Positions 20,661-56,882 of a DNA stretch of 64,000 nt are shown in pieces. Made by a program: the position numbers and the translations under genes. Position 1 is the first letter of the stretch; each line of letters starts with the position of its first letter. Source of the stretch: Pristiophorus japonicus (taxonomy: Eukaryota); assembly GCF_044704955.1 (NCBI RefSeq), contig NC_091984.1, forward strand, positions 115,754,001 to 115,818,000, read 5' to 3'. Below the pieces are notes generated by a model. The model saw only the letters and a list, made by a program, of their open reading frames with translations. It was not told the DNA's origin and ran no database searches.

Positions 20661-20975
20661 AGCAGCGGGAGTCCGGAGCTGCATCGGAGAGGCCTATAAA
20701 AGGCCCAATAGTCAGCGGAGGTGAGAGTTCGAGCAGCGAGAGTCCGGGGCAGCGTGGGAGAGGTCTATAAAAGGCCCAACAGTTGGCGGAGGCGGGAGTT
20801 CGAGCAGCGGGAGTCCGGGGAGGTGTCAGAGAGGCCTATAAAAGGCCCAACTGTCGGCGGAGGCAGAAGTTCGAGCAGCAGGAGTCCGGGGAAGTGTCAG
20901 AGAGGCCTATAAAAGGCCCAACTGTCGGTGGAGGCGGAAGTTTGAGCAGCGGAAGTCCGAGGAGGTGTCAAAGAT
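20661..20975 (+). repeat. 71-bp tandem monomers, each with a TATAAAAG box (CR1 5' end)
   Basis: Units start at 20661, 20732, 20803 and 20874, with a partial unit at 20945; core gaggcctataaaaggcccaa. Confidence 0.9.
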
Positions 20976-21163
20976 GCCAGCCGGTGCAGCTGCAGGAGCA
21001 TAATATAAACAAAGAAGTAGAAAGAAATCGAAAGGTGACGTCACAGCCAAGGGCGTAAGTGATTGGCTGGTGATTGGTGAGTAGTTTTACTTTTTCTTTC
21101 CTTTATCAGTCGGTAACCTTTATCATTGTTGTTGCCAAATTAAGTTAATCTAAGGGTTAAGTC

Positions 21164-22055
21164 ATGGCAGGAGAGCTCGGACACGTGTTATGCTCCTGTG
21201 CTATGTGGGAACTCAGGGACGCTTCCAGTGTCCCTGACGACTACATGTGCGGGAAGTGTACTCTGCTCCAGCTCCTGACAGACCACATTGCAGTACTGGA
21301 GCTGCAGGTGGATTCACTCTGGAGCAGGCGCGATGCTGAGGATGCCATGAATAGCATGTTTAGTGAGTTGGTCTTACCGCAGGTAAAGGTTAGGGCAGAG
21401 GTCCCCTGCGGTCATCCCCCTCCAAAACAGATACACAGCTTTGGGTATTGTTGGGGGGGATGACTCATCATGGCAGGGCAGCAGCAGCCAAGTCCATGGC
21501 ACCGTGGGTCGCTCTGCTGTACAAGTGGGCAGGAAAAAGAGTGGGAAAGCTATAGTGGTAGGGGATTCTATTGTAAGGGGAATAGATAAACATTTTTGCG
21601 GCCGCAATCGAGACTTCAGGATGGTATGTTGCCTCCCTGGTGCAAGGGTCAAGTATGTCTCGGAGCGGTTGCAGGACATTTTGAAGGGGGAGGATGAACA
21701 ACCAGTTGTCGTGGTGCATATAAGTACCAACAATATAGGTAAAAAATGGGATGAGGTCCTACAAGCTGAATTTAGGGAGCTAGGAGTTAAATTAAAAAGT
21801 AGGACCTCAAAGGTAGTAATCTCAGGATTGCTACTAGTGCCACGTGCTAGTCAGAGTAGGAATCACAGGATAGCTCAGATGAATACGTGGCTTGAGGAGT
21901 GGTGCAGAAGGGAGGGATTTAAATTCCTGGGACATTGGAATCGGTTCTGGGAGAGGTGGGACCAGTACAAACCGGACGGTCTGCACCTGGGCAGGACCGG
22001 AACCAATGTCTTAGAGGGAGTGTTTGCTAGTGCTGTTGGGGAAGGGTTAAACTAA
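21164..22055 (+). pseudogene. CR1 ORF1 (Cys zinc finger, leucine zipper, SGNH/GDSL esterase), frameshifted
   Basis: CSCAMWE..YMCGKC..LELQV; IVVGDSIVRG; HISTNN; DGLHL. Confidence 0.9.
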
Positions 22056-22102
22056 TATGGCAGGCGGATGGGAACCTATGCAGGGAGACAGAGGGAAGTA
22101 GA

Positions 22103-24880
22103 ATGGGGACAGAAGCAAAAGATAGAAAGAAGAAAAGTAAAAGTGGAGGGCATAGAAACCCAAGGCAAAAATCAAAAAGGGCCTCATTGCAGCAAAATTC
22201 TAAAAGGGCAAAGTGTGTGAAAAAGATAAGCCTGAAGGCTCTGTGCCTCAATGCGAGGAGTATTCGGAATAAGGTGGATGAATTAACTGCACAGGCAGCA
22301 ATTAATGAATATGATATAATTGGCATCATAGAGACATGGCTCCAAGGTGACCAAGGCTGGGAACTCAACATCCAGGGATATTCAACATTCAGGAAGGATA
22401 GACAGAAAGGAAAAGGAGGTGGGGTAGCGCTGCTGGTTAAAGAGGAAATTAATGCAATAGTAAGGAAGGACATTAGCTTGGATGATGTGGAATCTGTATG
22501 GGTGGAGCTGCGGATTACCAAAGGGCAGAAAACACTAGTGGGAGTTGTGTACAGACCACCAAACAGTAGTAGTGAGGTTGGGACAGCATCAAACAAGAAA
22601 TTAGGGAAGCATGCAATACAGGTACAGCAGTTATCATGGGCGACTTTAATCTATATATAGATTGGGCTAACCAAACTGGTAGCAATATGGTGGAGGAGGA
22701 TTTCCTGGATGGTTTCCTGGAGTGTATTAAGGATGGTTTTCTGGACCAATATGTCGAGGAACCAACTAGAGGACTGGCCATACTCGACTGGGTGATGTGT
22801 AATGAGAAAGGACTTACTAACAATCTTGTGCGAGGCCCCTTGGGGAAGAGTGATCATAATATGGTAGAATTCTTTATTAAGATGCAGAGTGAAACAGTTA
22901 ATTTAGAGACTAGGGTCCTGAACTTAAGGAAAGGTAACTTTGATGGTATGAGACGTGAATTGGTTAGAATAGACTGACAAATGATACTTAAAGGGTTGAC
23001 GGTAGATAGGCAATGGCAAACATTTAAAGATCACATGGATGAACTTCAACAATTGTACATCCCTGTCTGGAGTAAAAATAAAACGGGGAAGGTGGCTCAA
23101 CCGTGGCTAACAAGGGAAATTAAGGATAGTGTTAAATCCAAGGAAGAGGCATATAAATTGGCCAGAAAAAACAGCAAACCAGAGGACTGGGAGAAATTTA
23201 GAATTCAGCAGAGGAGGACAAAGGGTTTAATTAGGAGGGGGAAAATAAAGTATGAGAGGAAGCTTGCCAATAATATAAAAACTGACTGCAAAAGCTTCTA
23301 TAGATATGTGAAGAGAAAAAGATTAGTGAAGACAAACATAGGTCCCTTGCAGTCAGATTCAGGTTAATTTATAATGGGGAGCAAAGAAATGGCAGACCAG
23401 TTGAACAAATACTTTGGTTCTATCTTCATGAAGGAAGACACAAATAACCTTCCGGAAATACTAAGGGACCGAGTGTCTAGTGAGAAGGAGGAACTGAAGG
23501 ATATCCTTAATCGGCGGGAAATTGTGTTCGGGAAATTGATGGGATTGAAGGCCGATAAATCCCCGGGGCCTGATAGTCTGCATCCCAGAGTACTTAAGGA
23601 AGTGGCCCTAGAAATAGTGGATGGATTGGTGATCATTTTCCAACAGTCTATCGACTCTGGATCAGTTCCTATGTACTGGAGGGTCGCTAATGTAACACCA
23701 CTTTAAAAAAAAATGAGGGAGAGAGAAAACGGGTAATTATAGACCGGTTAGCCTGACATCAGTAGTGGGGAAAATGTTGGAATCAATTATTAAAGATGAA
23801 ATAGCAGCGCATTTGGAAAGCAGTGACAGGATCGGTCCACGTCAGCATGGATTTATGAAAGGGAAATCATGCTTGACAAATCTTCTGGAATTTTTTGAGG
23901 ATGTAACGAGTAGAGTGGACAAGGGAGAACCAGTGGATGTGGTGTATTTGGACTTTCAAAAGGCTTTTGACAAGGTCCCACACAAGAGATTTGTGTACAA
24001 AATTAAAGTACATGGTATTGGGGGTAATGTACTGACATGGATAGAGAACTGGTTGGCAAACAGGAAGCAGAGAGTCGGGATAAATGGGTCCTTTTCAGAA
24101 TGGCAGGCAGTGACTAGTGGGGTGCCACAGGGCTCAATGCTGGGACCCCAGCTATTTACAATATACATTAATGATTTGGATGAAGGAATTGAGTGTAATA
24201 TCTCCAAGTTTGCAGCTGACAATAAACTGGGTGGCGGTGTTAGCTGTGAGGAGGACGTTAAGAGGCTTCAGGGTGACTTGGACAGGTTAGGTGAGTGGGC
24301 AAATGTATGGCAGATGCAGTATAATGTGGATAAATGTGAGGTTATCCACTTTGGGGGCAAAAACACAAAGGCAGAATATTATCTGAATGGCGGCAGATTA
24401 GGAAAAGGGGAGGTGCAACAAGACCTGGGTGTCATGGTACATCAGTCATTAAAAGTTGGCATGAAGATATAGCAGGCGGTGAAGAAGTCAAATGGTATGT
24501 TGGCCTTCATAGCTAGGGGTTTTGAATATAGGAGCAGGGAGGTCTTACTGCAGTTGTACAGGGCCTTAGTGAGGCCTCACCTGGAATATTGTGTTCAGTT
24601 ATGGTCTCCTAATCTGAGGAAGGATGCTCTTGCTATTGAGGGAGTGCAGCGAAGGTTCACCAGACTGATTCCTGGGATGGCTAGACTGACATATGAGGAG
24701 AGACTGGATCGACTGGGCCTTTATTCACTGGAGTTTAGAAAGATGAGAGGGGATCTCATAGAAACATATAAAATTCTGACTGGACTGTACAGGTTAGATG
24801 CAGGAAGAATGTTCCCGATGTTGGGGAAGTCCAGAACCAGGGAATACAGTCTAAGGTGTAAGCCATTTGGACTGAGATGA
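22103..24880 (+). pseudogene. CR1 ORF2 (APE endonuclease and reverse transcriptase), disrupted
   Basis: LNARSI..ETWL, GDFN, SDHN; KSPGPD, QHGF, DFQKAFDKVP, QGSMLGP, FAAD, RGDLIETYK. Confidence 0.95.
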
Positions 24881-25368
24881 GGAGAAACTTCTTCACTCAG
24901 AAAGTTGTTAACCTGTGGAATTCCCTATCGCAGAGAGTTGTTGATGCCAGTTCATTGGATATATTCAAGAGTTAGATATGGCCCTTATGGCTAAAGGGAT
25001 CAAGGGGTATGGAGAGAAAGCAGGAAAGGGGTACTGAGGTGAATGATCAGACATGATCTTATTGAATGGTGGTGCAGGCTTGAAGGGTCGACTAGCCTAC
25101 TCCTGCACCTATTTTCTATATTTCTATGTTTCCATGCAGGTCCACCGATCCCTCTCTGTCTATGCACCTACTCACATCCCCATCTGACTAACCACCCATG
25201 ACACTCACCCTCATCCTAATGCAATCATAGAAAGTAACAGCAAATACAGAGGCCATCTGACAATGTCACGCCACTCTCTGATAAACAGTCTCTACAGATG
25301 TAGCCCATCCATTCCTTATACTCATTCCATCAGTCTCACTCAACGTTCTCTTCTTTGCCTCCTTGCAG

Positions 25369-26580
25369 GAGAAAAGAGCGCAGAACATGCGGGAGAGGGA
25401 GAGAACTGGAGGTAGCCCCCTAGCATTCACCCAACTGACACCAGCAGAGGAGGGGGTCCTGGAGATATCGGAAGTTGCAGAGCTGCTGGTGGTGGGAGAT
25501 GGAGGAGGACATCCCAGCAACCTGGTGACAGACTTACGTATCATACAGCCACATGGCATACAGCAGTCACTCATATGGTGACTGATGTCAGCAGCCAGTG
25601 AAATGTCATCATATACATAATGGTAACGTTAACCATTCATATTATCGCACTTCTAATTCATCTCCCACCGGTCCATCAAGTGCCCCCCTCCCGCATTGTC
25701 CAGCTGGAGAAGGAAGATGACTCCTCAGAGAAAGCTCCAGCCTCTGAGGATGCACCGTCAGCAGACCCAAGCACTCCAGTACCAGCGCAGATATGCACAC
25801 CTCAGTGGCCCCTGTGCGAGATAGAGTAGTGTTCCCACCTGTTGTCTCACTTCACAAGTGAGCAAGAGCAGATGGTGTTGACAGGGACAGCAATGGAGAC
25901 TACTCACCGGAGGTTGCAGGATGCTCCCAGCTCTGCTGAGCTGCATGCAGTTGTTGAGCCTCGTGGGCCATCGAGAAAGAGGGTGTTCCTAGTGCGGCAG
26001 CAACAATTTCATAAGGCTCTGGCAGCTTTTGCAGCCATGATGTCTTAAAATGTTGCAGGTGATGGCGACGATGTACTGTTCCATGGAAAGGATGGCCACC
26101 TGCCTGAAGCAGCTAATACGTCAGTCACGTGAGCACATGCTCACTGTGGACAACCAATGGCAGGCGCTCATTGATCTCATCTCTAGGAAGGACACAAACA
26201 TAGATTTGGGCCTTCATTGCCTCACTGTTGTGCAGTAAGGTGCTCTCCAGCTCTTTGTTAGCAGGGCAGTGCGAGTGGCCCATGAGAGGGACATGAAATG
26301 GGGCTCCTCTCAAAGTGCTCACACTTCTCCCCTGTTGCCTCCTCCTCAGTCAGAGCCCCACATGCTGTCTTGGATCCCGATGACCAAGTCTGCCCCTGGA
26401 GAGCTGCAGGAGCAGCAGATTTTGGCGGGGCCCTCACAGACTCCAAAACCCAGAGGACATCCGCCAAAAGTATCTGAGCAGTTGCAACAGGGAAGTGAGC
26501 AGCCTGCCTCTACCTCTGCTGAAGCCACAGGGGTTGCACCTCATAAAAGTACTCGGAAAAGAAAAACAACTCAAAGGTAG
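25369..26580 (+). pseudogene. Harbinger Myb/SANT protein downstream exons (degenerate)
   Basis: Acceptor ccttgcag, phase-0 continuation EKRAQNMRERERTGGSPLAFTQLTPAEEGVLEI; basic C-terminus RKRK near 26570. Confidence 0.65.
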
Positions 26581-27011
26581 ATGCACATGGGTGGATGAAC
26601 AAATGTTAGTGATAAGTTTCAGTGATTATTTTGACACAGATAAATGTATTTCTTTGCACTACTTTCCGGTCTTGTCCATTTATGCCTGCTAAATTTTGAA
26701 TGGAGTCAAGGGCTATGGGGAGCGGGCAAGGAAGTGGATTTGAGGCCAGGATCAGATCAGCCATGATCTTATTGAATGGCGGAGCAGGCTCGAGGGGCCT
26801 GCTCCTATTTCTTATGTTCTTATGTACCTTGGAAGTGGCTTTGTCACTTGGAGTGAATGGTGAGACGTTACTTGTCCTCGAGCAATGGGAGTTTGGGTGA
26901 CAGGAATGGCTTGGTCATTGTAGAGATGCTTTATGGTGTGGGGGAGGGGGGAGGCGGGGGGGGGGGGTCTTAGTGCAGCATGTGGCAGCCAAATAGGTGC
27001 ATTGGAGTAAA

Positions 27012-27770
27012 TTAAGTAAATCTGGCCATGATAAGGCCATCCAAGGCTTCCCGGGCAGCTATATGCGCTGCTGCTGGTGCCATCTCCACCTCAGCTTCCT
27101 CCTCCTCCTCCTCCTCATCTTTCACCTGCTCCTCCTCCTCTGAAGAGGCTGTGTGCTCTGCACCTTGCTCCTCCTGCAGTTCCAATCCTCGCTGCTGCAC
27201 TATGTTGTGCAGCGTGCAGCAGACCACGATGATTCTGAAGACCCTGGTAGGTGTGTATTGAAGGGCTCCTCCAAATTTGTCGAGGCATCTGAAGCGCATC
27301 TTCAGCATGACTATTGTTTGCTCCATGACACATCTGGTGCACATGGGACTCTCATTATAATGTTCCTCGGCCTCAGAACATGGCATCTTCAGTGGATGGC
27401 CCTGGTCCCGAAGTAGCCAGCCGGTAAGTCTGTTTGGAGGTGCGAAGAGCTGAGGGAGGGTGGACTGGCACAGCATAAAAGAGTCATGACAATTGCCAGG
27501 GAATCTGGTGCACACACGCACGATGATCTTTTTATGGTTGCAGTCCAACTGCACATTGAGGGAGTGGAAGCCCTTGCGGTTCACAAAGACACGTGGGTGA
27601 TGAGGGGGTGCCTTGATGGCCACATGTGTGCAGTTGATAATGCCCTGCACCTGTGAGAAGTCAGCCAAAGCTGCAATGCCGTGCTCAGAAACACTGGCCT
27701 CATCAGTGGTAAAGTTATATAATTGGCTGACCTGTCAAACATGGCATCGGTCACCTGGGTGATGCATCGC
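27012..27770 (-). pseudogene. PIF/Harbinger DDE transposase, C-terminal part, truncated at 27770 by an inverted CR1 segment
   Basis: [58 protein letters not shown]; convergent with the Myb gene. Confidence 0.9.
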
Positions 27771-28475
27771 TATTCTTGTACTCAGTAACACGTGGCATCA
27801 GGAGAAATCCGGAGATTACTACCTTTGGGGTCCTACTTTTTAATCTTTTTCCTAGTTCCCTAAAATCTGCCTGCAGGATCTCATCCCTCTTTTTACCTAT
27901 GTCATTGGTACCGCTATTGACCATAACTTCTGGCTTTTCACCCTCCCCCCTCCGAATGTCCTGCAGGCATTCAGTGGCATCCTTAACCCTGGAACCAGGG
28001 AGGCAACATACCGTCCTGGAGTCACGTCTGCGGCCGTAGAAGCGCCTGTCTGTTCCCCATACTATCAAACCACTACTGCTCTTTCACTCTTCTTCCTTCC
28101 ACCCCCCCCCACCCCCCACCTCACCTCCCCATGCAGCTGAGCCATCTGTGGTGCCATGGACTTGGCTCTGGCTGCACTCCCCAGAGGAACCATCGCCCCC
28201 ACCAGTATCCAGAACTGAAAACCGGTTAACGAGCGAGATGCATTCGGGGGACTCCTGCCCCACCTGCCTGGTCCCCCTTGTCTGTCTGGCAGTTACCCAT
28301 TCCCTCTCTGCCTGCACACTCTTAAGCTGCGGGGTGACCACCTCCTGAAACGTGCTATCCACGAAGTTCTCAGCCTCACGGATACAGTGTAGTGACAGTA
28401 GCCGCCATTCAAGTTCTGAAACCCGGAGCTCGAGCTGCTCTAGTTGGCGACACATCCTGCACACGTGATCGTCCA

Positions 28476-31400
28476 TGTTATGTCCTTACACTCTACTGTA
28501 AATCAGCACGAGGCACATAGTGGAGACAAGGTCACTCTGTGACCTGTACCTTTATTCACAGGACCAAGAAGTGATGACCCTGCATGGGACCTCCCTTTAT
28601 GTACCTGGATGACCAGGTGAGGAGTGTCTCCCACAAGTTCACCCCCTGTGGTCAAGGTGTGCATTTCTTAGGTGTATACAGTGTACAGTGTTGTTACATG
28701 AAGGTTACAGTTACATGAAGGTTACATACATGACATCACCTCCCCCCCAACGTCTTTGGGTCAAAGATTGAGTCTTTCAAGTGGTCGACGCTCTCTCGTG
28801 GAGTGCCGCAGTTGGGGCTCTGGTTGTTGAGCCTTGGCATGCGTCTTTGTCACCTGTGATGATTCCGGCTCATCCGGGCTGACCGCAAGGACTGTGCATG
28901 CTGCTGACGGTTCTTGTTGCTCGTTCACTGGCATTGGTGTAGGCAGCATCTCATGATTTTCCTCAGGTTCTTCAGTGTTCATGCTGAACCTTTTTTTTTT
29001 TTACTTGGTCCAGATGCTTGCGGTATATCTGTCCATTGTTAAGTCTGACCACTATAACCCTATTCCCCTCTTTACCAATTACAGTACCCGCAAGCCACTT
29101 GGGCCCCAAAGCGTGATTAAGAATAAATACAGGGTCATCGATTTCTATACATCCCCTCTTTGAGTTACGGTCATGGCACTCATTTTGGGACTGGCGCTTG
29201 CCCTCAACAATGTCTGACAGGACTGGGTGAATGAGGGACAGCCGAGTTTTAAGTTTCATGAGTAATTCATGAGTAGTTTCATGAGTAGTTCCGCTGGCAG
29301 GACTCCCGTGAACGAATGCGGTCGGGACCTGTAGGCCAGCAGGAGGCGCGATAGGCGGCATTGAAGGGAGGGTCCTTGAATCCGGAGCATGCCTTGTTTT
29401 ACGATTTGGCACATTCTGCCTGGCCATTGGAAGTCGGCTTGAACGGTGCTCTCCTGACATGTCTGATGCCATTACCCGACATGAACTCCTGGAATTCATA
29501 GCTAGTGAAGCACGGGCCGTTGTCGCTAAACAGGATGTCCAGCAAGCCGTGGGTCGCAAAGACCGCATGCAGACTCTCCACTGTGGTGGAACTCGTGCAC
29601 GAATTCAATATGATGCACTCAATCCATTTCGAGTATGCATCAACAACAATGATGAACATTTTCCCCATGAACCGGCCCGCGTAGTCTACGTGAATTCGTG
29701 ACCATGGCTTGGTGAGCCAGGGCCACGGGCTGAGTGGGGCCTCCCTGGGGGCATTGCCCAGCTGGGCACACGTTGTACACCTGCGAACACAGTGTTCCAA
29801 TCTGCATCAATTCCCGGCCACCATACATGTGACCGGGCAATGGCCTTCATTAGCACAATGCCTGGGTGCCCCTGATGAATGCTTCCCTTCTCTTCTGGGC
29901 CATGATTACCCGGCTGCCCCATAGTAGGCAGTCGGCTTGGATGGAGATTTCATCCATCCGTCTGTGAAACGGTCTGACCTCTTCAGGGCATGCTCCGTGT
30001 GCGGGCGCCCAATCCCCAGTCAGGACACATTTCTTAATCAAGGATAGGAGGAGATCTCGCTTTGTCCAGGTTTTGATCTGGTGGGCTGTGATGGGGGAGC
30101 CTGCGCTGTCGAAAGCATCGACAGCCATGACCATCTCAGCGCTTTGCTCCGCTGTCCCCTCAGCGATGGCCAGTGGAAGCCTGCTGAGCGTGTCAGCGCA
30201 ATTTTCGGTGCCTGGCTGGTGCCGTATGGTGTAGTCATACGCAGCCAGTGTGAGAGCCCACCGCTGTATGCGAGCTGATGCATTGGCATTGACAGCTTTG
30301 CTGTCGGACAGCAGGGATGTTAACGGCTTGTGGTCCGTTTCTAACTCGGACCTTCTGCCAAAAAGGTACTGGTGCATCTTTTTCACCCTGTAGACACATG
30401 CGAGTGCTTCCTTTTCAACCATCCCATATCCCCTTTCTGCTTGGGAGAGCAACCTGGAAGCATAAGCCACAGGTTGGAGTTGGCCCTCATCATTACTCTG
30501 CTGCAACACGCACCCAACCCCATAGGATGATGCATCGCATGTCAAAACCAATTTCTTACAGGGGTTGTACAGGGTCAACAGCTCATTAGAACAAAGTAGG
30601 TTCCGCACCCGATTGAAAGCCCATTCCTGACAGTCCCCCCAAAACCAATCACAACCCTTACGCAGGAGCACGTGTAGCGGCTCCAACAATGTGCTTAAGT
30701 TCGGCAGAAAGTTCCCGAAATAGTTCAATAGTCCCAGAAATGAACGCAACTCTGATGTGTTGCCAGGCCTGGGCGCGCGACGGATCGCCTCCGTTTTGGA
30801 TTCGGTAGGCCGGATCCCGTCTGCAGCAACCCTCCTGCCCAAAAACTCGACCTCTGGGACCAAAAACACACATTTGGACTTCTTTAGTCGCAGGTCTACC
30901 TGGTCCAGTCGGCGTAGCACCTCCTCCAGGTTGTGGAGGTGTTCCTCGCTGTCTTGACCCGTGATAAGGATGTCGTCCTGAAATACGATTGTTCCAGGGA
31001 TGGATTTGAGCAGGCTTTCCATGTTCCTTTGAAAGATAGCGGCTACTGAACGAATGCCAAACGGACACCTGTTGTAGACAAACAGCCCCTTGTGCGTGGT
31101 GATGGTGGTCAGTAGCTTGGATTCTTCGGCCAGTTCTTGGGTCATGTAGGCCGAAGTGAGGTCCAACTTGATGAACAGCTTGCCGCCTGCCAGCGTGGCA
31201 AAAAGACCCTCCGCTCTCGGAAGCGGGTATTGGTCTTGTAGTGACACTCGGTTGATAGTGACCTTGTAGTCGCCACAGATCCTGACCGAGCCACCCGTTT
31301 TTAGGATGGGGATGATGGGGCTTGCTCAGTCGCTGAATTCAATGGGTGAAATTATGCCCTCTCTTAGCAACCTGTCCAACTCACTATCAATTTTCTCCCG

Positions 31401-33246
31401 CATCACATACGGCACAACTCTGGCTTTATGGTGTACTGGTCTGGCGTCCGGGGTGATGCGTATCACTACTTTGGTACCTTTGAAAGTCCTGACACCAGGT
31501 TGAAATAGTGACTCAAATTTCTGTAGGACCTGTGAACATGAACTTCGCTCCACAGATGAAATGACATGCACATCCCCCCATTTCCAGTTCATCTCGGCTA
31601 GCCAGCTCCTCCCCAAAAGTGCAAGACCATTTCCTGGGACAATCCAGAGTGGCAGCCGGTTCTCTGATCCATTATGTGTGACTACCAACATTGCACTGCC
31701 TAGCACGAGGATGACCTCTTTGGTGTACGTCCTTAATTGCGTGTCAATGCGTTCTAGTTTGGGTCTGCTAGCTCTGAGTGGTCATAGTTTCTCGAATTGT
31801 TGGACACTCATAAGTGACTGGGCTGGCTCCTGTGCCCAGCTCCATGCATACCAGGATGCCGTTTAACAGTACTCTCATCATCATAGGTGGCATCTTTGTG
31901 TATGAGCTGTGGATGTTTGCCACCTGAACCCACTGAACTTCAGCAGCCATTGCTGTGTCCCAAGCATAACCCTGCCTTGCAGACCCCTCTTGTGGTACAT
32001 CCGCTTCATATACCAGCCTCGCTGCGGACTTCCTGCACATTCTGGCTAAATGTCCACTGAAGTTACAATTTCTGCAGATGAATTGTTGAAACCTGCAGGT
32101 TTTCGCAGCATGTCTGACCCCACACCTCCAGCAGGAGCCGAGATTGTTGTGAACAAAAGAGCTGTTACCAGGCATTCCTCTCTGATTGTCTCTTTGATTA
32201 CTCTTGAGCACTCTGTTAGTGGGTGTCAATGGCCCCATCCTGGGACGTATTGTCCCTTGTGATGGTGTAAATATCCGTTCAACCTGCCATTGTCTATGTT
32301 GAGGACCCACCCTAGAATCTGTTACTGCCTGGTTGGTGTTGAATTGCCCTTGCCTGCCTGCGGGGTTCTGAGTTGCGTTTACCATGTTAACTCCCTGCTC
32401 CATCGCCACATTGGGAGCAGGGTTGCGTGTGTATATGATCTTGGTTTCCTCCTCCCCCGCCATGAAGGTTTGAGCCATCAACGCTGCTGCTTACAAGATC
32501 AAGTCCTTGGTCTCAATTAGCTTCCTAAAAACCCCGGCATGACCAATGCCTTCAATGAAGAATTCCCGTAACATGTCCCCCCTGCAGGTGTCTGTGAACT
32601 TATAGAGGCTGGCCAAGCGCCGAAGGTCCGCAACAAAGTCCGGTGTACTCTGCCCTTCCCGACGTCGGTGCGCATAGAATCGGTGTCGCGCCATGTGTAT
32701 ACTGCTCGCCGGTTTGAGGTGCTCACCGATCTGTTTGCTGAGCTCCTCAAAGGTCTTGTCCGCCGGCTTCTCGGGTGCGGGCAGGTCTTTCATCAGCGCG
32801 TACGTCTTAGGTCCACAGCTGGTCAGTAGATGCGCCCTTCGCTTGTCAGCTGCTGCTGCTCCCAGCCAGTCCTTCGTGACAAAGCTCTGCTGGAGCCTCT
32901 CAACGAAATTGTCCCAGTCCTCACCAACACAGTACCATTCCTCTGTGCTATCGGTGGCCATTCTCGTGAGTCGTTGATTCCCGTTTCTCGTCGCCAAATG
33001 TTATGTCCTTACACTCTACTGTAAATCAACACGAGTCACATACTGGAGACAAGGTCACTCTGTGACCTGTAGCTTTATTCACAGGACCAAGAAGTGATGA
33101 CCCTGCGTGGGACCTCCCTTTATGACCAGGTGAGGAGTGTCTCCCACAAGTTCACCCCCTGTAGAAAAGGTGTGCATTTCTTAGGTGTATACAGTGTACA
33201 GTGTTGTTACATGAAGGTTACATACATGAAGGTTACATACATGACA
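28476..33246 (-). mobile_element. Gypsy/Ty3 LTR retrotransposon, full length, frameshifted
   Basis: LTRs 28476-28735 and 32999-33246 (TG..CA); 5-bp TSD GTCCA; PBS TGGCGACGAG (tRNA-Ser-like); PPT; gag 32491-32997, CCHC knuckles, protease, RT FQDD and RNase H (29850-31247), integrase (PWSRIHVDYAG, DNGP). Confidence 0.96.
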
Positions 33247-33550
33247 GTCCAGGCCACGAGAAGTGTCCAGGACTTCCCACATGGCACAGGATGTGCATTC
33301 AACAGGACTGAGCTGCCTTTTCAGGCCTCTGTTAGATTATTAAGTAAAGTATACCACTCTGCCCTAAATAAGAGAGAAGAAAAGACAACAGTGATACTCA
33401 TCAATCAATCACCTACCTGCTGTCCTGTGACGTCCCTCGGTTTTTTTGGGAAATACACCATGGAAGGTACGCGCGCTGCTGCCTCCGATTAGCTCCATGC
33501 TGTTCCTCCACTCTCTTCTTTATGTTCCGCCACCGCTTCCGATTAGGAAA

Positions 33551-33608
33551 GAACATTTCACGAATTTGCGTGTCATCCTTGCGCAGAGGCCATGCTAATC
33601 TACTCTGT
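33551..33608 (-). pseudogene. U6 snRNA 3' half (from the ACAGAG box to near the 3' end)
   Basis: Reverse complement ACAGAGTAGATTAGCATGGCCTCTGCGCAAGGATGACACGCAAATTCGTGAAATGTTC. Confidence 0.93.
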
Positions 33609-36600
33609 TTAGAAACATAGAAATCTACAGCGCAGAAGGAGGCCATTTCGGCCCATTGTGTCTGCACCGGCTGACAAAGAACCGCACAGCCCTCGGTTAC
33701 ATATAAACCTACGAACAAAGAACAATGGCGGAAAGGCAACGAGCACCCAGCCCAACCAGTCCGCACCACACAACTATATTGAAACATTTGACACTCCACC
33801 CCAACCGGAGCCATGGGATCTCCTGGGAGAGACAAAAACCAGATAAATACTCAGGCCAATTGGGGAGAAAGAAAATCTGGGAAAATTCTTCTCCGACCCA
33901 TCCAGGTGATCAAAACTAGTCCAGGAGATCAGCCTGGCTGTATTCGATTCCCTGCAGTACTTACCATCATTTCTGCGCCAGCCAACAAGAGGTTTTCCAG
34001 TCTAATCCCAATTACCAGCTCTAGGTCTGTAACCCTGCAGGTTACTGCACTTTAAGTGCCCATCCAACCACCTTTTAAATGTGGTGAGTGTTTCTGCATT
34101 CACCACCCTTCCAGGCAATGAGTTTCAGACCCCCACAACCCTCTGCGTGAAGAAGCCCCCCCCATCCCCCCTCCCTCAAATCCCCTCTGAACCTTCCACC
34201 AATCACCTTAAAACTATGCCCCCTCATAATTGACCCATCCAGCAATGGAAATTGGTCCTTGCTATCCGCTATATCCAGGCCCCTCAAAATTTTGTACACC
34301 TCAATGAGGTCTCCTCTCAACCTCCTCTGTTCCAATGAGAACAAACCCAGCCTATCCAATCTGTCTTCATAACTAAGATTCTCCATTCCAAGCTGCATCC
34401 TAGTAAATCTCCTCTGCACCCTCTCTAGTGCAATCACATCCTTCCTATAATACAGCGACCAGAACTGCATGCAGGACTCCAGCTGTGGTCTAACCAGAGT
34501 ATTATACAATTTAAGCATAACCTCCCTGCTCTTGTATTCTATGCCTCGGCCAATAAAGGCAAGCATTCCGTATGCCTTCTTAACCACCTTATCCACCTGG
34601 CCTACTTTCAGGGATCTGTGGACAAGCACTCCAAGGTCCTTTTGTTCATCTACACTATTAAGTGGCCTACTGCTAATGTGTATACCCTTTTCTTATTAAC
34701 GCTCCCAAAGTGCATTACCTCACACTTCCTTGAATTAAATTCCATTTGCCACTGCTCTGCCTACCAGATCGATATCCTCCTGCAGCCCATGACTTTCCTC
34801 TTCATTATCAACCACACGGCCAATTTTAGTGCCATCTGCAAACTTCTTAATCATACTCCCTAATTTCAGATCAAAATCATTGATATATACCACAAAAAGC
34901 AAGGGACCCAGTACTAAGCCCTGCGAAACCCCACTGGAAACATCCTTCTAGTCACAAAAACATCCAGGAGCCTTTGCTTCCTACCTCTAAGCCAATTTTG
35001 GATCCAACTAGCCACTCTACCCTGGATCCCATGGGCTTTAACCTTTGTCACCAGTCTACCATGTGGGACCTTATCAAAAGCTTTGCTAAAGTCCATTTAC
35101 ACTACATCATATGCACTACCCTCAGCAACCCTCTTGGTTACCTCCTCAAAAAATTCAATCAGGTTAGTCAAACATGATTTTCCCTTAACAAATCCGTGCT
35201 GACTGTCCCTAATTAATCCTTACCTTTCCAAATGTAGATTTATCTTGTCTTTCAGGATTTTTTCCAATAATTTTCCCACCACTGAGGTTAGGCTGACAGG
35301 CCTGTAATTACTCAGCCAATCCCTTTCTCCCTTCTTAAACAAGGGTACTGTGGTGTATGTAGCACACAAATCACTGACTCCACACGGTCTGGTGTAAGTC
35401 TAACTGCTGTGACCTTCGTCCTTTATTGTTCAGCTCCAGAGTGCCTCCCAGGTGCAATGGTCATTCTTATATAGCCCTTGTTACAGGTACTACCAGGGTT
35501 TCCCACCGCAGCGCCCTCTGTGGTGTGGCATAGTACTTACAATACATTTAAGGTACTGGGACAATACACACATCATTACATAACATCACCTTCCCCCCGC
35601 CTCCCACCTGGACGCAGGACAACGATACACACATCATTACATAACGGAAGGCAGGTGGGCATAGACAGTGCATTAGTATGGTACATATTATCTGGTACAT
35701 TAACTGGTTATTGACTGGTAGCGGAACCTTGATTTCCTTGTTAGCCGTTATCATTAATTGTGCTTCATCCATTATTTTATACAAATACAGTGGCCATTCA
35801 GCATAAAAAAAGTAATTCTTATTATAAATTCACTATCTCACATTAACATAGCTCATTTTAGACTCGCTCTGCCAAACGGAAGTCCTTTGTCGGGACCACC
35901 TCTTTGTAAGGCCCTTTTAAGACTCCCGGGTGCATTTCCTCTTTAAGGCGCCATCTTTGATGCAGGAGGATTCCACGAGGCTTCTCCTTGGGCGCTGCCA
36001 TCTTTGATGCTCTGCAGCTCCGACACGATGCCGCCGCCATCTTCTTCTCCGCCACTCCGAATGCCCTCCGCCGTCGCAGCCTCTGCTCCCCTCCGCTGCC
36101 ACCTGACTTGCCGCCTCTCCTGCGGCCGCCGTGGCCTCTCCAGCGGCTGCACTTGCCGCGTCCCCCGCTGCCTCCATAGCGGCCTCCCCTGCGGCTGCCG
36201 CCGCCCAACGCTACCAGCTCCTCGGCGGGGCCTGCCCAACGGCCTCTTCCTCTGTGGTGCCCTTCCGAACCGCCGACCCCTGGATCCCTCAGCACCCCGC
36301 CCGCAGCGCCCCGCCGGCTCACTCCCCCCCCACTCGGCCCCTCTGTGCAGGGCTGCTTGCCTGTGGGGGCTGGGGCTGCAGGGTCTCTGTGAGGTCCGGG
36401 CCTGGGACTTGCCTGTGGGTGGATTGAGGCTGCAGCTCCAGCTCGGTCGGCGCTGCTCTCTGGGGACCCGGGGCACGGCAGCACCCCGGGGAGCAGCAGC
36501 CTGTGGAGGAATGAAGTCTTCCCAGCTCCCACGGACCGTCCCCATCCACCTCCGGCCGAGGAGTGTCGGCCCATCGCCTGCAACGACCCACAAAGGTAAA

Positions 36601-39428
36601 GCGTGCGTCTCGTCCCGGTGGGACACCTGCACCATCGCTCTGCCGAGAACAGGTATTAGTTCCCTGGTGTAGGTACGCAGCTTCGCCGTGACCGGGACCA
36701 GCTTGGGTCGTGCAGCTGGGTTAATCCACAGTTTATCAAAAGTTCTCCGACTCATCAATGACGGACCCGAGCCCGTGTCCACTTCCATACTCACTGGGAC
36801 TCCGTTGATTTTTACTTCCCTTATCACTGGGGGCGAATCGTCGGTGCACGTATACAGTCCCAACACCTCATCTTCTTCTACCTGCTCCTCGCTGAACAGT
36901 GGACCATCCCCCATCTCCTCAACCACATGGTGAGTCCGATTTCTTTTACACATACGCTGAAGGTGGCCTTTAACGTGGCAGGTATTGCACGTATACTCCG
37001 CAAACCTGCACCGGTGAGCCCCATGGCTTCCTCCACAGCGCCAGCATGGTGCTGCTTGATTGGCCCCCCTCGGCGGACTCTGAGCTCCAGGACCCCGAGG
37101 TCCGTGCTCTCTGCCCCGGGCAGAGCCACGTTCTGCAGCTTTGTCCGTGGTGGGCGCTATCCTGTGGACAGTGCCTGCCGGGTTCGAGACTGTGTGGATT
37201 ATTTGCTTGGTGCTGCAAGTCGAGGTCATATGTGCCCGGCTGATGACGATGGCCTTTGTCAGAGTGACTGTGGGTTCCGTGGCCAGCAGCTTGTGAAGGA
37301 GGCCCTCGTGGCCAATCCCCATAACGAAAATGTCCCGCAAAGTCTCGTCAAGGTGTGTCCCAAAAATCACACGGCGCCGCGAGTCTCCTGAGGTCCGCAG
37401 CATATTTGGTGACATCCTGGCCCTCGGGTCTGCAGTGATGGTAAAATTTGTATCTGGCCGTGAGGATGCTCTCCTTTGATTTCAACTGGTCACGAATGAG
37501 TTCAGTCAGCTCCTCGTATGACTTGTCCCTGGCGCTCCCAGGTGCCAACAAATTCCTGACGAGACAGTAAACCTCATCTCCACAACTGGAGAGCAATATC
37601 GCCTTACGCTTCTCTCTCATTGCGTATGTGTCCTCCGTCAGGTCGTTTGCTGAGAAGTAGTACTCGAGCCTTTCCGTAAAGGCTTCCCAATCATTGCCCA
37701 CGGTAAAATCCTTTAGCGAGCCCAGAGTAGCCATGGTTGCGTGGAGTTCGTCCGCTTCCTCGTTGCCAATGTGGTGTATCTAGCACACAAATCACTGACT
37801 CCACACGGTTTGGTGTAAATCTAACTGCTGTGACCTTCGTCCTTTATTGTTCAGCTCCAGAGTGCCTCCCAGGTGTAGTGGTCACCCTTATATAGCCCTT
37901 GTTACAGGTACTACCAGGGTTTCCCACCGCAGCGCCCTCTGTGGTGTGGCATAGTACTTACAATACGTTTAAGGTACTGGGACGATACACACATCATTAC
38001 ATAACAGGTACAACATTAGCAGTCCTCCAGTCCTCTGGCACCATGCCCAATTCCAAAGAGAACTGGAAAATGATGGTCAAGGCCTCTGTTATTTCCTCTT
38101 TTACTTCACTCAACAACCTGGGATACATTTCATCCGAGCCTGGGGACTTATTTACTTTCAAAGCTGCTAAGCCCCTTAATACTTCCTCTCTCACTATGTT
38201 TATTTCATCCAGAATATCACATTCCTTCTCGATAGCAGTATCTGCATTGCCCCTTTCCTTTGTGAAAACAGATGCAAAGTATTCATTAAGAACCACACCA
38301 ATATCTTCCGCCTCCACACAAAGATTACCCTCATGGTCTCTAATAGGCCCTACCCTTTCTTTAGTTACCCTCTTGCTCAATATATTTATAGAACATCTTT
38401 GGGTTTTCCTTAATTTTACTAGCCAATAATTTTTTATGCTCTCTCTTAGCATTCCTAATATCCTTTTTAATTTTTCCTTTTAACTTTCTATATTCCTCCA
38501 AAGATTCTATAGTATTTAGCCATCAGTATATGACATAAGCTTCCTTTTTTTTCTTTATCCTACCCTGTAAGTCCCTAAACATCCAGGGGGCTCTAGAATT
38601 ATTATTCCCACCCTTTTTCTTTAAGGGCACATGTTTGGCCTGAGCCTTCCGGATCTCCTCCTTGAATGCCTCCCACTGTTCCGATACTGATTTACCCACA
38701 AGTAGCTGCTTCCAGTCCACTATGGCCAAATCACTCCTTAACTTAGCAAAATTAGCTTTTCCCCAATTTGGGACTTTTATTCCAGACCTATCCTTGTCCT
38801 TATCCATAACTAACTTGAATCTGACTGAATTATGGTCATTGGCACCCAAATGCTCTCCCGCCAATACCCCTTCAACCAGCCCAGTGTCATTCCCCAAAAC
38901 TAAATCCAAAACCACCCACTCTCATGTTGGGATTGCTACATACTGACTAAAAACGTTTTTGAATGCATTTTAAGAATTCTGCCCCCTCTATACCCTTCAC
39001 ACTATATTTGTCCCAATCAATATTAGGATAGTTAAAATCCCCTGCTTTTACTACCCTATGGTTTTTGGACTTCACAATCTCCTCTATCTCCCTCCCACTG
39101 TTTGGGGGTCTATAATACACACCTAGCAGTGTGATCGCCCCTTTTTTATTTTTCAATTTGACCCATAAGACCTCATTTGATGATCCCTCTAACATATCAT
39201 CCCTTCTCATCGCTGTAATAGTTTCTTTAATTAATACCGTGTCCCCCTTTTATACCTTCCTCTCTATCTTGTCTAAAAATCCTGGAGCCAGGAATATTGA
39301 CATGCCAAACCTGCCCCTCTTTCAGCCATGTTTCTGTAATGACTATAATGTCATACTCCCAGGTATCTACCTGTGCTCTTAGCTCATCCGCCTTATTCGC
39401 TATACTCCTTGCATTAAAGTATATACCA
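33609..39428 (-). mobile_element. CR1 LINE (ORF2 and long 3' UTR) inserted within the U6 sequence, itself interrupted by a Gypsy element
   Basis: GIYFNARSI start near 39425, GDFNYP, KSPGSD, DFSKAFDKVP, RGDLIEVYK; tail (tttctatg) at 33610-33625. Confidence 0.9.
35349..38006 (-). mobile_element. Non-autonomous Gypsy LTR element (gag and protease only)
   Basis: 237-bp LTRs at 35349-35585 and 37770-38006; TSD GGTAC; PBS TGGCAACGAG; PPT; gag, CCHC knuckles and VDTGS protease, followed by GC-rich sequence with no RT, RNase H or integrase. Confidence 0.92.
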
Positions 39429-39469
39429 TATCATTCTTAACTTTGGGCTATGTGCTGCTGAAGTGAGCA
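39429..39469 (-). pseudogene. U6 snRNA 5' half
   Basis: Reverse complement TGCTCACTTCAGCAGCACATAGCCCAAAGTTAAGAATGATA versus U6 GTGCTCGCTTCGGCAGCACATATACTAAAATTGGAACGATA. Confidence 0.85.
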
Positions 39470-41507
39470 GATGAATGCGTGGCTGGAGAGATGGTGCAGG
39501 AGGGAGGGTTTTAGATTCCTGAGGCATTAGGTCCATTTCTGGGGAGGTGGGACTTGTACAAGCTGAACAGGTTGCACCTCAACAGGGCCAGGACCAATGT
39601 CCTCATGGGGGAGGGGTTGCTAGTGCTGTTATGGAGGGTTTAAACGAGCTTGGCAGGAGGATAGGAACTTGAGAGTAGATTCAGAAGGAGAAAAGAAAAG
39701 CTGGAAATGGAAGCCAGAAAATTAGTAAGCGAGTTTGGAAGGCAGAGGTTAGAAAATAGACAAGGGAGTTTGGCAGTGCTAAATGGTGTATAATTCAATG
39801 CAAGAAGTCTAGGGAATAAGGCAGATGAGCTGAGGGCACAGATAGACATGTGGGGGTATGATATAACTATTACTGAGACGTGGCTGAAAGAAAGTCAGGA
39901 ATGGCAGCTCAACATTCCTGGTTACAGGGTCTTCAGACAAGATAGAGAGGGAGATAAAAAGGAGGGGGTTCGCAATATGGATTAAAGAAACAATTGCATC
40001 TGTGAGGCGGGATGATATATTAGAAGGATCATTAAATGAGGCCATATGGGTTGAACTGAAGAACAAAAAAAGGGCAATCACACTGCTGGGAGTATACTAT
40101 AGACTCCCATACAGTCAAAGGGAGATAGAGGAGCAAATATGTAGGCAAATTTCTGAAGTGCATAAACAATAGGGCAGTAAGAACATTATTTGAAAAAATT
40201 CTAAGGGACAGGATAAATCTTCATTTAGAAAGACATGGAGTAATCGAGTACAGTCAGCATGGATCTGACTAACTTGATTGCATTTTTTAGGAGGTAACAA
40301 GGAGGGTCGATGAGGGTAGTGCGTTTGATGTAGTCTATATGGATTTTAGCAAGGCTTTTGATAAGGTCCCACATGGCAGACTGGTCATGAAAGTAAAAGC
40401 CCATGGGATCCATGGCAAAGTGGCAAGTTGGATCCAAAATTGGCTCAGAGGCAGGAAGCAAAGTGTAATGATCGATGGGTGTTTTTGTGACTGGAAGGAC
40501 GTTTCCAGTGGGGTTCCGCAAGGCTCAGTAATAGGTCCCTTGCTTTTTATGGTTTATATCAATGATTTGGACTTGAATGTATGGGGTATGATTACAAAGT
40601 TTGTAGATGATACAAAAATTGGCCGTGTGGTTGATAATGAAGAAGAAAGCTGTAGACTGCAGGAAGATATCAATGGACTAGTCTGGCGGGCAGAACAGCA
40701 GCAAATGAAATTCAATCTGGAGAAGTGTGAGGTAATGCATTTGGGGAGGGCTAACAAGGAAAGGGAATACACAATAAATGGTAGGACACTGAGAAGTGTA
40801 GAGCAACAGAGGGACCTTGGAGTGCATGTCCACAGATCCCTGAAGGTAGCAGGACAGGTAGATAAGGTGGATACAAAGGGAACAGGATACTTTCCTTTAT
40901 TAGTTGAGGCATAGAATATAAGAGCAGGGAGGTTATGCTTGATCTGTATAAAACACTAGTTAGGCCACAGCTAAACTACTGCGTGCAGTTCTGGTCACCA
41001 CATTATAGGAAAGATGTGATTGCAGTACAGAGGAGATTTACGAGGATGTTGCCTGGACCAGAGAATTTTAGCGATGAGGAAAGATTGGATAGGCCGGGGT
41101 TGTTTTCTTTGGAACAGAGGAGGCTGAGGGGAGACCTAACTGAGGTATATATAATTAAGATGGACCTAGATAGAGTGGATAGGAAGGACCTATTTCCCTT
41201 AGCAGAGGGGTCAATAACCAGGAGGCATAGATTTAAAGTGGCAGGAGGATTAGAGGGGATTTGAGGAGTATTCTTTCACCCAGAGGGTGGTAGGGATCTG
41301 TAGCAAACTGCCTGAAAGGGTGGTAGAGACAGAAATCCTCATAGCATTTAAAAAATACTTAGATCTGCACTTGAAGTACCATAACCTACATGGCTATGGA
41401 CCAAGTGCTGGAAAGTGGGAATAGGCTGGATAGCTCTTTGTCGGCCGGCGCGGACATGGTGGGCTGAAATGGCCTCCTTCTGTGCTGTAAATTTCTATGT
41501 ATCTATG
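39465..41507 (+). mobile_element. 3' portion of the U6-headed CR1 (ORF1 C-terminus, ORF2 with internal deletion near 40180, 3' tail)
   Basis: Begins EQMNAWLERWCRREGFRFL; APE start FNARSL; RT DFSKAFDKVP..FVDD; tail tttctatgtatctatg. Confidence 0.9.
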
Positions 41508-41508
41508 A

Positions 41509-41790
41509 GAATGTACACCAGTATTGTATCAGTGTGTGAATGTACACTACTATTGTATCAGTGTGTGAATGTACACTAATAGTGTATCAGTGTGAGAATG
41601 TACACTAATATTATATCAGTGTGTGAATGTACACTAATATTGTATCAGTGTGAGAATGTACACTACTATTGTATCAGTGTGTGAATGTACACTAATAGTG
41701 TATCAGTGTGTGAATGTACACTACTATTATATCAGTGTGTGAATGTACACTACTGTTATATCAGTGTGAGAATGTACACTAATATTATAT
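41509..41790. repeat. 29-bp minisatellite, about 10 copies
   Basis: Unit gaatgtacacta(a/c)tattgtatcagtgtgt. Confidence 0.92.
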
Positions 41791-43419
41791 CTCCCCTTTT
41801 GACCTCTCCAAGCTCATCTTGTCCATGAAACCCACTTCCTGCTCCCTTGATCCTATTCCCACTAAACTGTTGACCACCCAACTTCTTTTTTTGGCTCCCA
41901 TGTTAACTGACATTGTTAACAGTTCTCTCTCCTCAGGTACTGTTCCCCTCTCCTTCAAACCTGCAGTCATCACTCCTCTCCTCAAAAAAACAACCCTTGA
42001 CCCCACTGTGCTTGCTAGCTACCGCCGCATCTCCAACCTCCCTTTCCTCTCCAAAGTTCTTGAGCGTATTGTCGCCTCCCAAATCCGTGACCATCATTCC
42101 TGGAACTCAATGTTTGAATCCCTTCAATCTGGTTTTCGCCCTGCCACAGTACCAAAACGGCTCTCAGAAAAGTCACAAATGACATCCTTTGTGACTGTGA
42201 CAAAGGTAAACTATCCCTCCTCATCCTCCTGGACCTGTCTACCACCTTTGACACAGTTGACCACTACATCCTCCTCCACTATGCCTCGCCACCATTGTCC
42301 AGCTGGGTGGGACTGCACTCGTCTGGTTCCATTATTATCTATCTAATTGTAGCCATAAAATCTCCTGCAATGGCTTCTCTTCCCACTCCCGCATCGTTAC
42401 CTCTGGTGTCCCCCAAGGAACTATCATTGGCCTCCTTCTATTTCTCATCTTTTGCCCCTTGGCAGTATCATCCAAAAACACGGCATCAGTTTCCATATGT
42501 ACGCTGACGGCACCCAGCTGTACCTCTCCACCACTTCTCTCGACCCCTTCATGGTATCTAGATTGTCAGACTGCTTCTCCAACATCCAGTACCGGATGTG
42601 CAGAAGTTTTCTCAAATATTGGGAAGACCGAAGCCATTGTTTTTGGTCCCTGCCACAAACTCTGTTCCCTAGTCACTGACTCCATCTCTTTCCCTAACAT
42701 CTATCTGAGGCTAAACCAGACTGTTCGCAACCTAGGCATCATATTTGACCCTGAAATGAGCTTCCGGCCACATATCCGCGGCATAACTAAAACCGCCTAT
42801 TTCCACCTTTGTAACATTGCCCACCTCTGCCCCTGCCTCCGCTCTTCTGCTGAAACCCTCATTCATGCCTCTGTTACCTCTAGACTTGACTATTCCAATG
42901 CACTCCTGGCTGGCCTCCCACATTCTACACTATGTAAACTTGAGGTCATCCAAAACTCGGCACCCGTGCCCTAACTTGCACCAAGTCACGATCACCCATC
43001 ACCCCTGTGCTCGCTCAACTACATTGGCTCTCGGTTAAACAACGCTTCAATTTCAAAATTCTCATCCTTGTTTACAATTCCCTCCATGGCCTCGCCCCTC
43101 CCTATCTCTGTAACCTATTTCAGCCTCACAACCCCATGAGAATTCTGCGCTCCTCAAATTCTGCCCTTTTGAGCATCTCTAATTATAACTGCTCAACCAT
43201 CGGTGGCCATGCTTTCAGCTGCCTGGGCCCTAAGCTCTGGAACTCCCTCCCTAAACCCTCCACCTATCTTTCCTCCTGTAAGACGCTCCTTAAAACCTAC
43301 CTCTTTAACCAAACTTTTGGTCATCTGCCGTAATCTTCTTATGTGGCTCGGTCTCAAATTTCTGTTTTGTCTTATAACACTGTTGTGAAGCGCCTTGGGA
43401 CATTTTACTACGTTAAAGA
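41791..43419 (+). mobile_element. L2 LINE, 5'-truncated (RT and 3' tail)
   Basis: [55 protein letters not shown]; tail gtgaagcgccttgggacatttt. Confidence 0.92.
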
Positions 43420-47689: not shown

Positions 47690-48090
47690 CCTGTCCTGGC
47701 CAATATTTGTCCCTCAATCAACATAACAAAAACAGATTATCTGGCCATTTTCACATTGCTGTTTGTGGGGGCTTGCTGTTGTAATGTGGGAAACGCGGCA
47801 GTCAATTTGCTCACAGCAAACTCCCACAAACAGCAATGTGAAAATTACCAGATAATCTATTTTTGTTATGTTGATTGAGGGACAAATATTGACCAGGGCA
47901 CAACTCCCCTGCTCTTCTTCAAAATAGTGCCAAGGTTTAACATCTCATCCAAAAGACAGCACAGCACTCCCTCAGTACTACACTAGAGTGTCAGCCTAGA
48001 TTTATGTACTTAAGTTTCTTGGAGTGAGACTTGAACCTACAACCTTCTGACTGAGAGGTAAGTGTGCTACCCACTGAGCCACAGCTGACA
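47690..48090 (-). mobile_element. tRNA-headed SINE with L2-type tail (SacSINE1/DeuSINE-like)
   Basis: Reverse complement head gtcagctgtggctcagtgggtagc (A box) and ggttcaagtc (B box); body homologous to 55658-56105. Confidence 0.8.
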
Positions 48091-56105: not shown

Positions 56106-56882
56106 CTCTACTGGGAATAATTGTGTATATGTGGGATCAAGCTCAATTGTGATGCTTTCAATTGCTGAATAACCTACTGTTATTCACAATCGAAGGGTCG
56201 ACGGTGCCTGTGGAGCCGAGCCTCTGTATGAGTCAGCATCTTCAGCGGCGCGGGGAGAGGTGGGTGTGTGCGGGGGGTGAGGGGAGAGAATTAGGAGAAA
56301 AGGAAAAAAGGAAGAGATCTGAGGTCATTGATTAAAGTGAACATTTATGGATTCAACAATTTAATAGGTATTTTCTATAGTCAAATCATTAAACCTGAGG
56401 GGTGAACATGACGGGAATGGCCTCCGTACTATACAATCATCTGACGGCAGTTGAATGCAGTGAGAAATACATCAATGTTTCACTTCTTCTTTAGTTAACT
56501 GCTTTGTTTGCCTTGCACGTTATTTCACAAAGTATAATGACTTGGCAAACCCACAACCACTTCTTCTTTTTAACCTCAAGCCATCAGCGAACATATTTGC
56601 ACAACTGAGGAAAAGCAACTGTCCCAAGTTGATAGTTTTTCGCCCAATGTAATGCAGGATTTGAAAACCCTATTTTAAAAATTAGAATTTTAGTTTTATA
56701 GCAGATGGGAACAGCTACGTAGAATCTCGGTCAGTTTACTCCCACTTACTGGTGAGCAGAATAGTACAATGTAAGCGTTAACGACACAAACAGTGCTAAC
56801 ATCACTCTGTGTCTTTCTGCTATGGGTTTAATATAATTGATTACTGACACTCAACAAAAACAGCCAGGCTGTGCACTCTGTT

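Follow-up and report, generated by a model that had tools for sequence, protein, structure and literature searches.

The 64,000-nt stretch of Pristiophorus japonicus DNA analysed here (the window) comes from contig C8 of a genome of 5.9 Gb and consists of repeats nested in one another, of types that resemble those of cartilaginous fish. Positions 27770-41508 hold a CR1-type LINE together with three later insertions that break it up (Table 1), and from left to right the region reads as flank, inverted front part ending in a U6 snRNA copy, upright back part and tail. We call the CR1 family of this element family A, and a related one family B. The labels CR1, L2, Tx1 and Harbinger are provisional and rest on domain matches and anatomy; beyond the right-flank minisatellite lies a younger element that we take to be L2-like.

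Table 1. Features of the U6-bearing CR1 and its flanks, in window coordinates
Feature	Positions	Strand	Remarks
Left flank: Harbinger-like DNA transposon (DDE_Tnp_4), 3' half, cut at 27769	25601..27769	-	left limit approximate
ORF1 continued, putatively esterase-type, ends ...EYKN	27770..28475	-	OSK E 1.6e-4, GDSL E 0.006, both below cut-off
Later LTR retrotransposon in ORF1	28476..33246	-	RT and RNase H domains; 5-bp TSD
Family-A CR1 5' UTR and ORF1 start	33247..33547	-	~1.2 monomers of a ~58-nt repeat
TTT linker, U6 nt 98 to CR1	33548..33550	-	outside the CR1 monomer
U6 snRNA copy, 3' half (nt 41-98)	33551..33608	-	4 substitutions
Nested later CR1, from a different subfamily, inserted at U6 nt 41	33609..39428	-	5'-truncated at ORF2 start
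LTR element inside the nested CR1	35349..38006	-	5-bp TSD
U6 snRNA copy, 5' half (nt 2-41)	39429..39469	-	8 substitutions, 1 insertion
GAGCA, 5-nt microhomology common to antisense U6 5' end and CR1 3' part	39465..39469		inversion junction
Probable 3' part of the same family-A CR1	39465..41508	+	ORF1 end (EQMNAW...), ORF2, RT, short-repeat tail
Right flank: 29-nt minisatellite	41509..41791		about 10 copies

Rfam finds U6 at 33641-33542 (-) with 62.5 bits, and alignment to L032, a gene from the genome's own U6 array that we used as reference, assigns this half to nt 41-98 at 93% identity. The 5' half directly adjoins the opposite end of the 33609-39428 insertion (78% identity, E 0.008), where it tops the 5116 tiles of the window with a score of 35, versus 28 and 24 for the next two. 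The two halves overlap by one A only, and the claim of an earlier note that removal of the insertion rejoins a split U6 is borne out, with nt 2-41 and nt 41-98 at its two ends. That note also described the Pol III terminator as missing: the U6 is indeed 3'-short, stopping at nt 98, but three T remain, being either a U-tail remnant or untemplated bases, and a T run of about 4-8 is not found at the junction. Shortened 3' ends are common in this genome, with 20 of 44 other dispersed U6 copies ending at or before nt 103. No U6 promoter is present upstream of the U6, where the sequence is antisense ORF1, and no intact U6 gene matching the window copy was found in the genome. A variant U6 gene was considered as the source and rejected, as no link emerged: one substitution of the window copy recurs in three diverged U6-like copies, which differ from it elsewhere.

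The CR1 5' UTR monomer begins after U6 nt 98 and the TTT, with the U6 in sense and directly 5' of the LINE sequence. Eleven of 29 family-A loci tested, all picked with a query starting at the same place as the window copy, gave a monomer alignment; nine of the eleven start at phase 0-12 with 1.0-1.3 monomers, and two extend further. The window copy starts at phase 0, within the range of most aligned copies, and the comparison is suggestive of a U6 attached where family-A CR1s usually begin. The 5' UTR, described earlier as intact, has the usual start phase of its family but only about 1.2 monomers. ORF1, described likewise, is not intact: it halts at 33247 because the LTR element at 33246-28476 inserted there, holds a stop codon, and breaks off at 27770 with its remainder on the + strand from 39465. 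An esterase-type ORF1 is a CR1 feature (PMC13343379); the related family-B ORF1 passes the GDSL cut-off, and the focal fragment gives only OSK and GDSL matches below it. Non-CpG divergence of the U6, at 8 of 83 positions by hand count, compares with 7.6% for the CR1 5' piece (p 0.41), which fits a U6 as old as the CR1 front part.

The + strand CR1 adjoining the U6 5' end, overlooked in the earlier note, is most likely the 3' part of the same element and not host sequence. It carries RVT_1 at 40291-40914 (E 6.7e-19) and an ORF2 with an internal deletion near 40180, ends in a short-repeat tail rather than poly(A), and lies 6% from the family-A column majority, versus 14-15% for the nested CR1 (33609-39428) and 20% for family B. 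In family-A copies the match to 28475-27770 (-) directly precedes the match to 39465 onward (+), and the motif that ends the - piece lies 7 nt from the motif that starts the + piece in 12 of 20 loci. The front and back parts are therefore collinear, with 7 nt missing between them, and the reading frame across the break runs ...EYKN / EQMNAW. The inner breakpoint falls at U6 nt 2, which is where a cDNA would end, and has 5 nt of microhomology. On this sequence evidence, 27770-41508 appears to be a single CR1 with an inverted 5' part and U6 where the orientation changes, an arrangement like that of L1 twin priming. Non-CpG divergence is higher in the 5' piece than in the 3' piece (7.6% vs 5.5%, Fisher p 0.04), and the ratio of 1.37 is inside the range of uninverted copies (0.87-1.65, n=15). 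No second collinear inversion was found in 820 kb sampled, a non-random sample comprising 110 family-A and 213 family-B alignments. An origin of the inversion by recombination of the + strand CR1 with the nested one was also considered and rejected: neither of the two is chimeric, and such an exchange would leave the U6 halves opposed.

At the outer junctions, no TSD was found around the whole element, the left Harbinger half and the right minisatellite do not rejoin, and microhomology at the left (outer 5') junction is not above background. The 5' half of the Harbinger-like transposon was not found in the window, in the 60 kb to its left or in the 80 kb to its right; L181, the sole candidate for the missing half, belongs to a separate copy whose sequence runs on beyond the break. 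Among public runs, 65-70% of the junction words are present in four rows from a single sample, which may be the source, with at most 9% in any other row. Contigs from the public runs at the left junction are swamped by repeat copies, and the reads give neither confirmation of the junctions nor a sign of orthologues or expression.

We find that the U6-CR1 junction is single-copy. A 109-nt junction query gives a match extending beyond the U6 only at the window among the best 40 of 110 candidates, and a 29-nt junction pattern allowing 3 mismatches likewise finds the window only. A 22-nt U6 word with one mismatch gives 85 matches, of which 41 fall in two gene clusters and the other 44, among them the window copy, are dispersed; with one further copy from the Rfam search added to the remaining 43, none of 44 other dispersed U6 copies shares the junction, in a survey that may miss very diverged copies. 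The earlier note had offered two readings, a one-off template-switch or ligation chimera and a CR1 subfamily with a heritable U6 cap, and the first is the one supported. That a CR1 subfamily carries U6 as a heritable 5' leader, with the window copy as one member, now has a negligible probability, although the genome does hold two fusions of U6 to full-length CR1 (the window and L109, described below) and the scoring of the best 40 candidates and the 3-mismatch limit could miss very old members. A degenerate junction pattern suited to such members finds the window and two 3-mismatch matches, no better than the 3 of a reversed control; U6 lies upstream of none of the best 29 family-A 5' ends; and L109 differs in both CR1 family and U6 length. 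A pattern for the U6 5' variant likewise occurs at the window only. An internal promoter is moreover not reported for snRNA genes in the accessible part of PMC4494074. The copy cannot be a master because its 5' part is inverted against ORF2 and no U6 promoter lies upstream. The locus is a single event and a dead copy, not a member of a U6-headed family.

U6 is found at the 5' end of a full-length CR1 in two of the 45 dispersed copies, in two CR1 families. The other case, L109 (G000:C16, around 14,361,700-14,366,000, -), has U6 nt 64-106 and a T run on a full-length, uninverted family-B CR1, with an ORF1 frame open for 316 codons and an ORF2 split by one stop; it inserted cleanly into an older CR1, and host sequence continues on both sides. 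U6 has thus been captured at a full-length CR1 5' end at least twice, independently and in different CR1 families. Capture of U6 recurs in this genome: among the 44 other dispersed copies, nine have a CR1 3' part downstream in the same sense, in three cases beyond a 50-170 nt spacer, and nine have Tx1-like sequence there.

Several further U6 arrangements were seen in the same survey. The gene clusters lie at G000:C8:186.57-186.83 Mb (38 matches, mostly a ~2.55-kb tandem array) and C1:92.69-92.72 Mb (3 matches). Fourteen of the 44 dispersed copies occupy a single fixed position within antisense CR1 ORF2 (L096, L101, L104, L106, L107, L108, L119, L120, L121, L124, L126, L130, L131 and L133); three of them overlap the Tx1-like nine, and 13 have a short Tx1-type tail that resembles the window's own Tx1-like element at its 3' end. 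These likely represent a CR1-targeting Tx1 family that captures U6. L108 also carries what we take to be 5S rRNA-like sequence, and L133 what we take to be tRNA-like sequence. A diverged U6-like sequence is found in L139, L141 and L142 (also L118 and L134); the first three copies have shared changes, each lies by a Tx1-like 3' end, and their sequence is possibly an old U6 variant.

We consider that 27770-41508 is one dead CR1 whose U6-fused front part was inverted relative to its back part in a single two-primer insertion, with a probability of about 0.65. Reverse transcription would have been primed at the tail and copied back to ORF1, while a second cDNA, primed by the other DNA end, would have started within ORF1 (or at a broken RNA end) and run to the 5' end of the RNA. 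There the enzyme would have jumped to a U6 RNA at its 3' end, the cDNAs would have been joined end to end through the 5-nt match GAGCA, and flanking DNA would have been lost or rearranged, then or later. The alternative to an enzyme jump is prior ligation of U6 to CR1 RNA. In the accessible part of PMC6789731, ligation by RtcB needs the U6 cyclic phosphate and a partner with a 5'-OH and gives 4-8 T; since the U6 here is 3'-short with 3 T and its partner is joined at the usual 5' start, we infer that the jump is favoured. A capped CR1 RNA would favour it further, as RtcB needs a 5'-OH (PMC6789731, same part).

A single insertion event has points against it, namely the absent TSD, the left junction without microhomology and the more diverged 5' piece (p 0.04). 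As far as the available text of the two papers goes, ~95% of 5'-inverted L1s have microhomology at the outer junction (PMC2912911), which the left junction here lacks, and in human cells 5' inversion occurs almost only with L1 and not with the L2-clade ZfL2-1 (PMC4245944); TSDs of L2/CR1-type elements are only 3-5 bp in the same source (PMC4245944). That left junction without twin-priming hallmarks, the flanks that do not rejoin and the poor documentation of twin priming outside L1 would all suit an uninverted U6 on a full-length CR1 whose front was flipped later by a local rearrangement through GAGCA that also removed flanking DNA, and L109 demonstrates that the uninverted form arises in this genome. 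We nevertheless judge a later flip unlikely, and prefer an origin at insertion, because the breakpoint of such a flip would have to lie no more than 1-2 nt from the U6 5' end, a position that we infer to matter to reverse transcription alone; a single 3.6-kb family copy contains GAGCA 6 times, so the match by itself does not pick the site.

Separate arrival of U6 and CR1, with a U6 retrocopy landing at the CR1 5' end or the inversion point, or the reverse order, is quite improbable. The region is densely nested, with its three later insertions, and a U6 ending at nt 98 plus TTT is unlike the mature end plus 4-8 T of human U6/L1 in the accessible part of PMC6789731; but an independent retrocopy, for which the earlier note had looked to a TSD of its own, finds no TSD around the U6 alone, and the U6 has the same orientation as the UTR, joins it at the start phase typical of the family and matches the CR1 front in age, in a genome where sense U6-LINE fusions are frequent. 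Slightly less probable still is that the CR1 pieces on the - and + strands represent separate family-A insertions, their ends matching only by coincidence. The unequal divergence (p 0.04) and the lack of a TSD are compatible with two insertions, and a subfamily test through shared minority alleles, which has no power even in intact copies, gave no link between the pieces; against this, the two belong to the same family and lie head-to-head with breakpoints within 7 nt in a ~4-kb element, for which we estimate ~0.5% for position alone, and no other such chance pair occurs among the 110 family-A and 213 family-B alignments.

The single two-primer insertion that we prefer can be compared with known systems, described here as in the accessible parts of the papers cited. 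Chimeras of U6 with LINEs are reported as U6/L1 in mammals, U6/L2 and Mon-1 in platypus and U6/RTE-like and AnolisSINE2 in lizard (PMC4476161, PMC11838501, PMC6789731), together with a single U6/CR1-like case from turkey that is unresolved (PMC4476161); every human U6/L1 chimera is unique and non-propagating, in a catalogue that excluded 5'-inverted L1s (PMC11838501). The locus resembles these retrocopies in having U6 in sense directly 5' of a LINE, a short T run and a unique, non-propagating junction, but its CR1 is joined at the usual 5' start and not as a 5'-truncated 3' end, its U6 stops at nt 98, it has no TSD and the U6-bearing part is inverted relative to the 3' part. With 5'-inverted, twin-primed L1s (PMC2912911, PMC4245944) it shares collinear inverted 5' and upright 3' segments, few bases lost and junction microhomology, and it differs in being a CR1, in lacking a TSD and outer 5' junction microhomology and in having captured U6 at the inversion junction. 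Inverted snRNA/L1 twin-priming chimeras, mostly of U5 (PMC4476161), also place an snRNA antisense to and adjoining a 5'-truncated LINE 3' part; there the snRNA is primed directly from target DNA, whereas here ~1 kb of LINE 5' part lies between U6 and flank. The snRNA-derived head on a retroelement recalls SINEU, the U1/U2-headed SINEs of crocodilians (PMC4494074), which unlike the single-copy U6 junction are multicopy with shared junctions; the SINEU-like element of the window is instead the U2-headed one at 16724-17075. Neither a U6 on a full-length CR1 nor a 5'-inverted CR1 appears in the accessible text of the mostly open-access literature searched.

Clear U6/CR1 chimeras are present in this genome, and in two of them the U6 joins a full-length 5' end, while the LINE partners in the accessible parts of published accounts are usually 5'-truncated. 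To judge by the inversion, L1 may not be alone in using two-primer insertion. It is an even bet that CR1 reverse transcriptase can both run two-primer insertion and, at the 5' end of a full-length CR1 RNA, recurrently jump onto U6, with this locus recording both; if so, full-length CR1s would have a route to new 5' ends. As a single dead copy with no sign of function, the locus is of mechanistic rather than biological value.

Other elements of the window were also characterised. The sequence at 16724-17075 (+) belongs to a U2-headed, SINE-like family of about 351 nt (L221-L249), composed of a rearranged U2, a second short U2 5' motif, a tail of about 100 nt and poly(A). Its 40 scored loci, the best of 1799 candidates, are all 98-100% identical and dispersed, some of them in tandem, and TSDs of 9-29 bp are found at 19 of 30 loci, compared with 52 of the 870 control pairs, which were mismatched. 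The family is very young and a true multicopy snRNA-headed element, and may be a better lead in this window than the U6. SINEU is reported only from crocodilians in the accessible part of PMC4494074, and titles and abstract openings in our literature search gave no SINEU-like element in other lineages. The tail recurs in L092 (G000:C3:301077105), a U6/SINE chimera in which U6 nt 8-106 is followed by the last 97 nt of the U2-headed element tail (100% identical) and poly(A). Among CR1 copies, 20661-25135 (+) of the window is a full-length family-B element with 4.5 copies of a 71-nt 5' UTR monomer, and L157 (L016), a family-A 5' end elsewhere, has ~130 nt of its ORF1 start duplicated and inverted inside the 5' UTR, a geometry that is not that of twin priming. 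The Tx1/L1-like element at about 56870-60280 (+) is 5'-truncated and retains an 891-codon open frame (RVT_1, zf-RVT). Two near-perfect fold-back inverted repeats lie in repeat copies, at 6201-6321 with 59-nt arms 3 nt apart and at 47692-47900 with 88-nt arms 33 nt apart.
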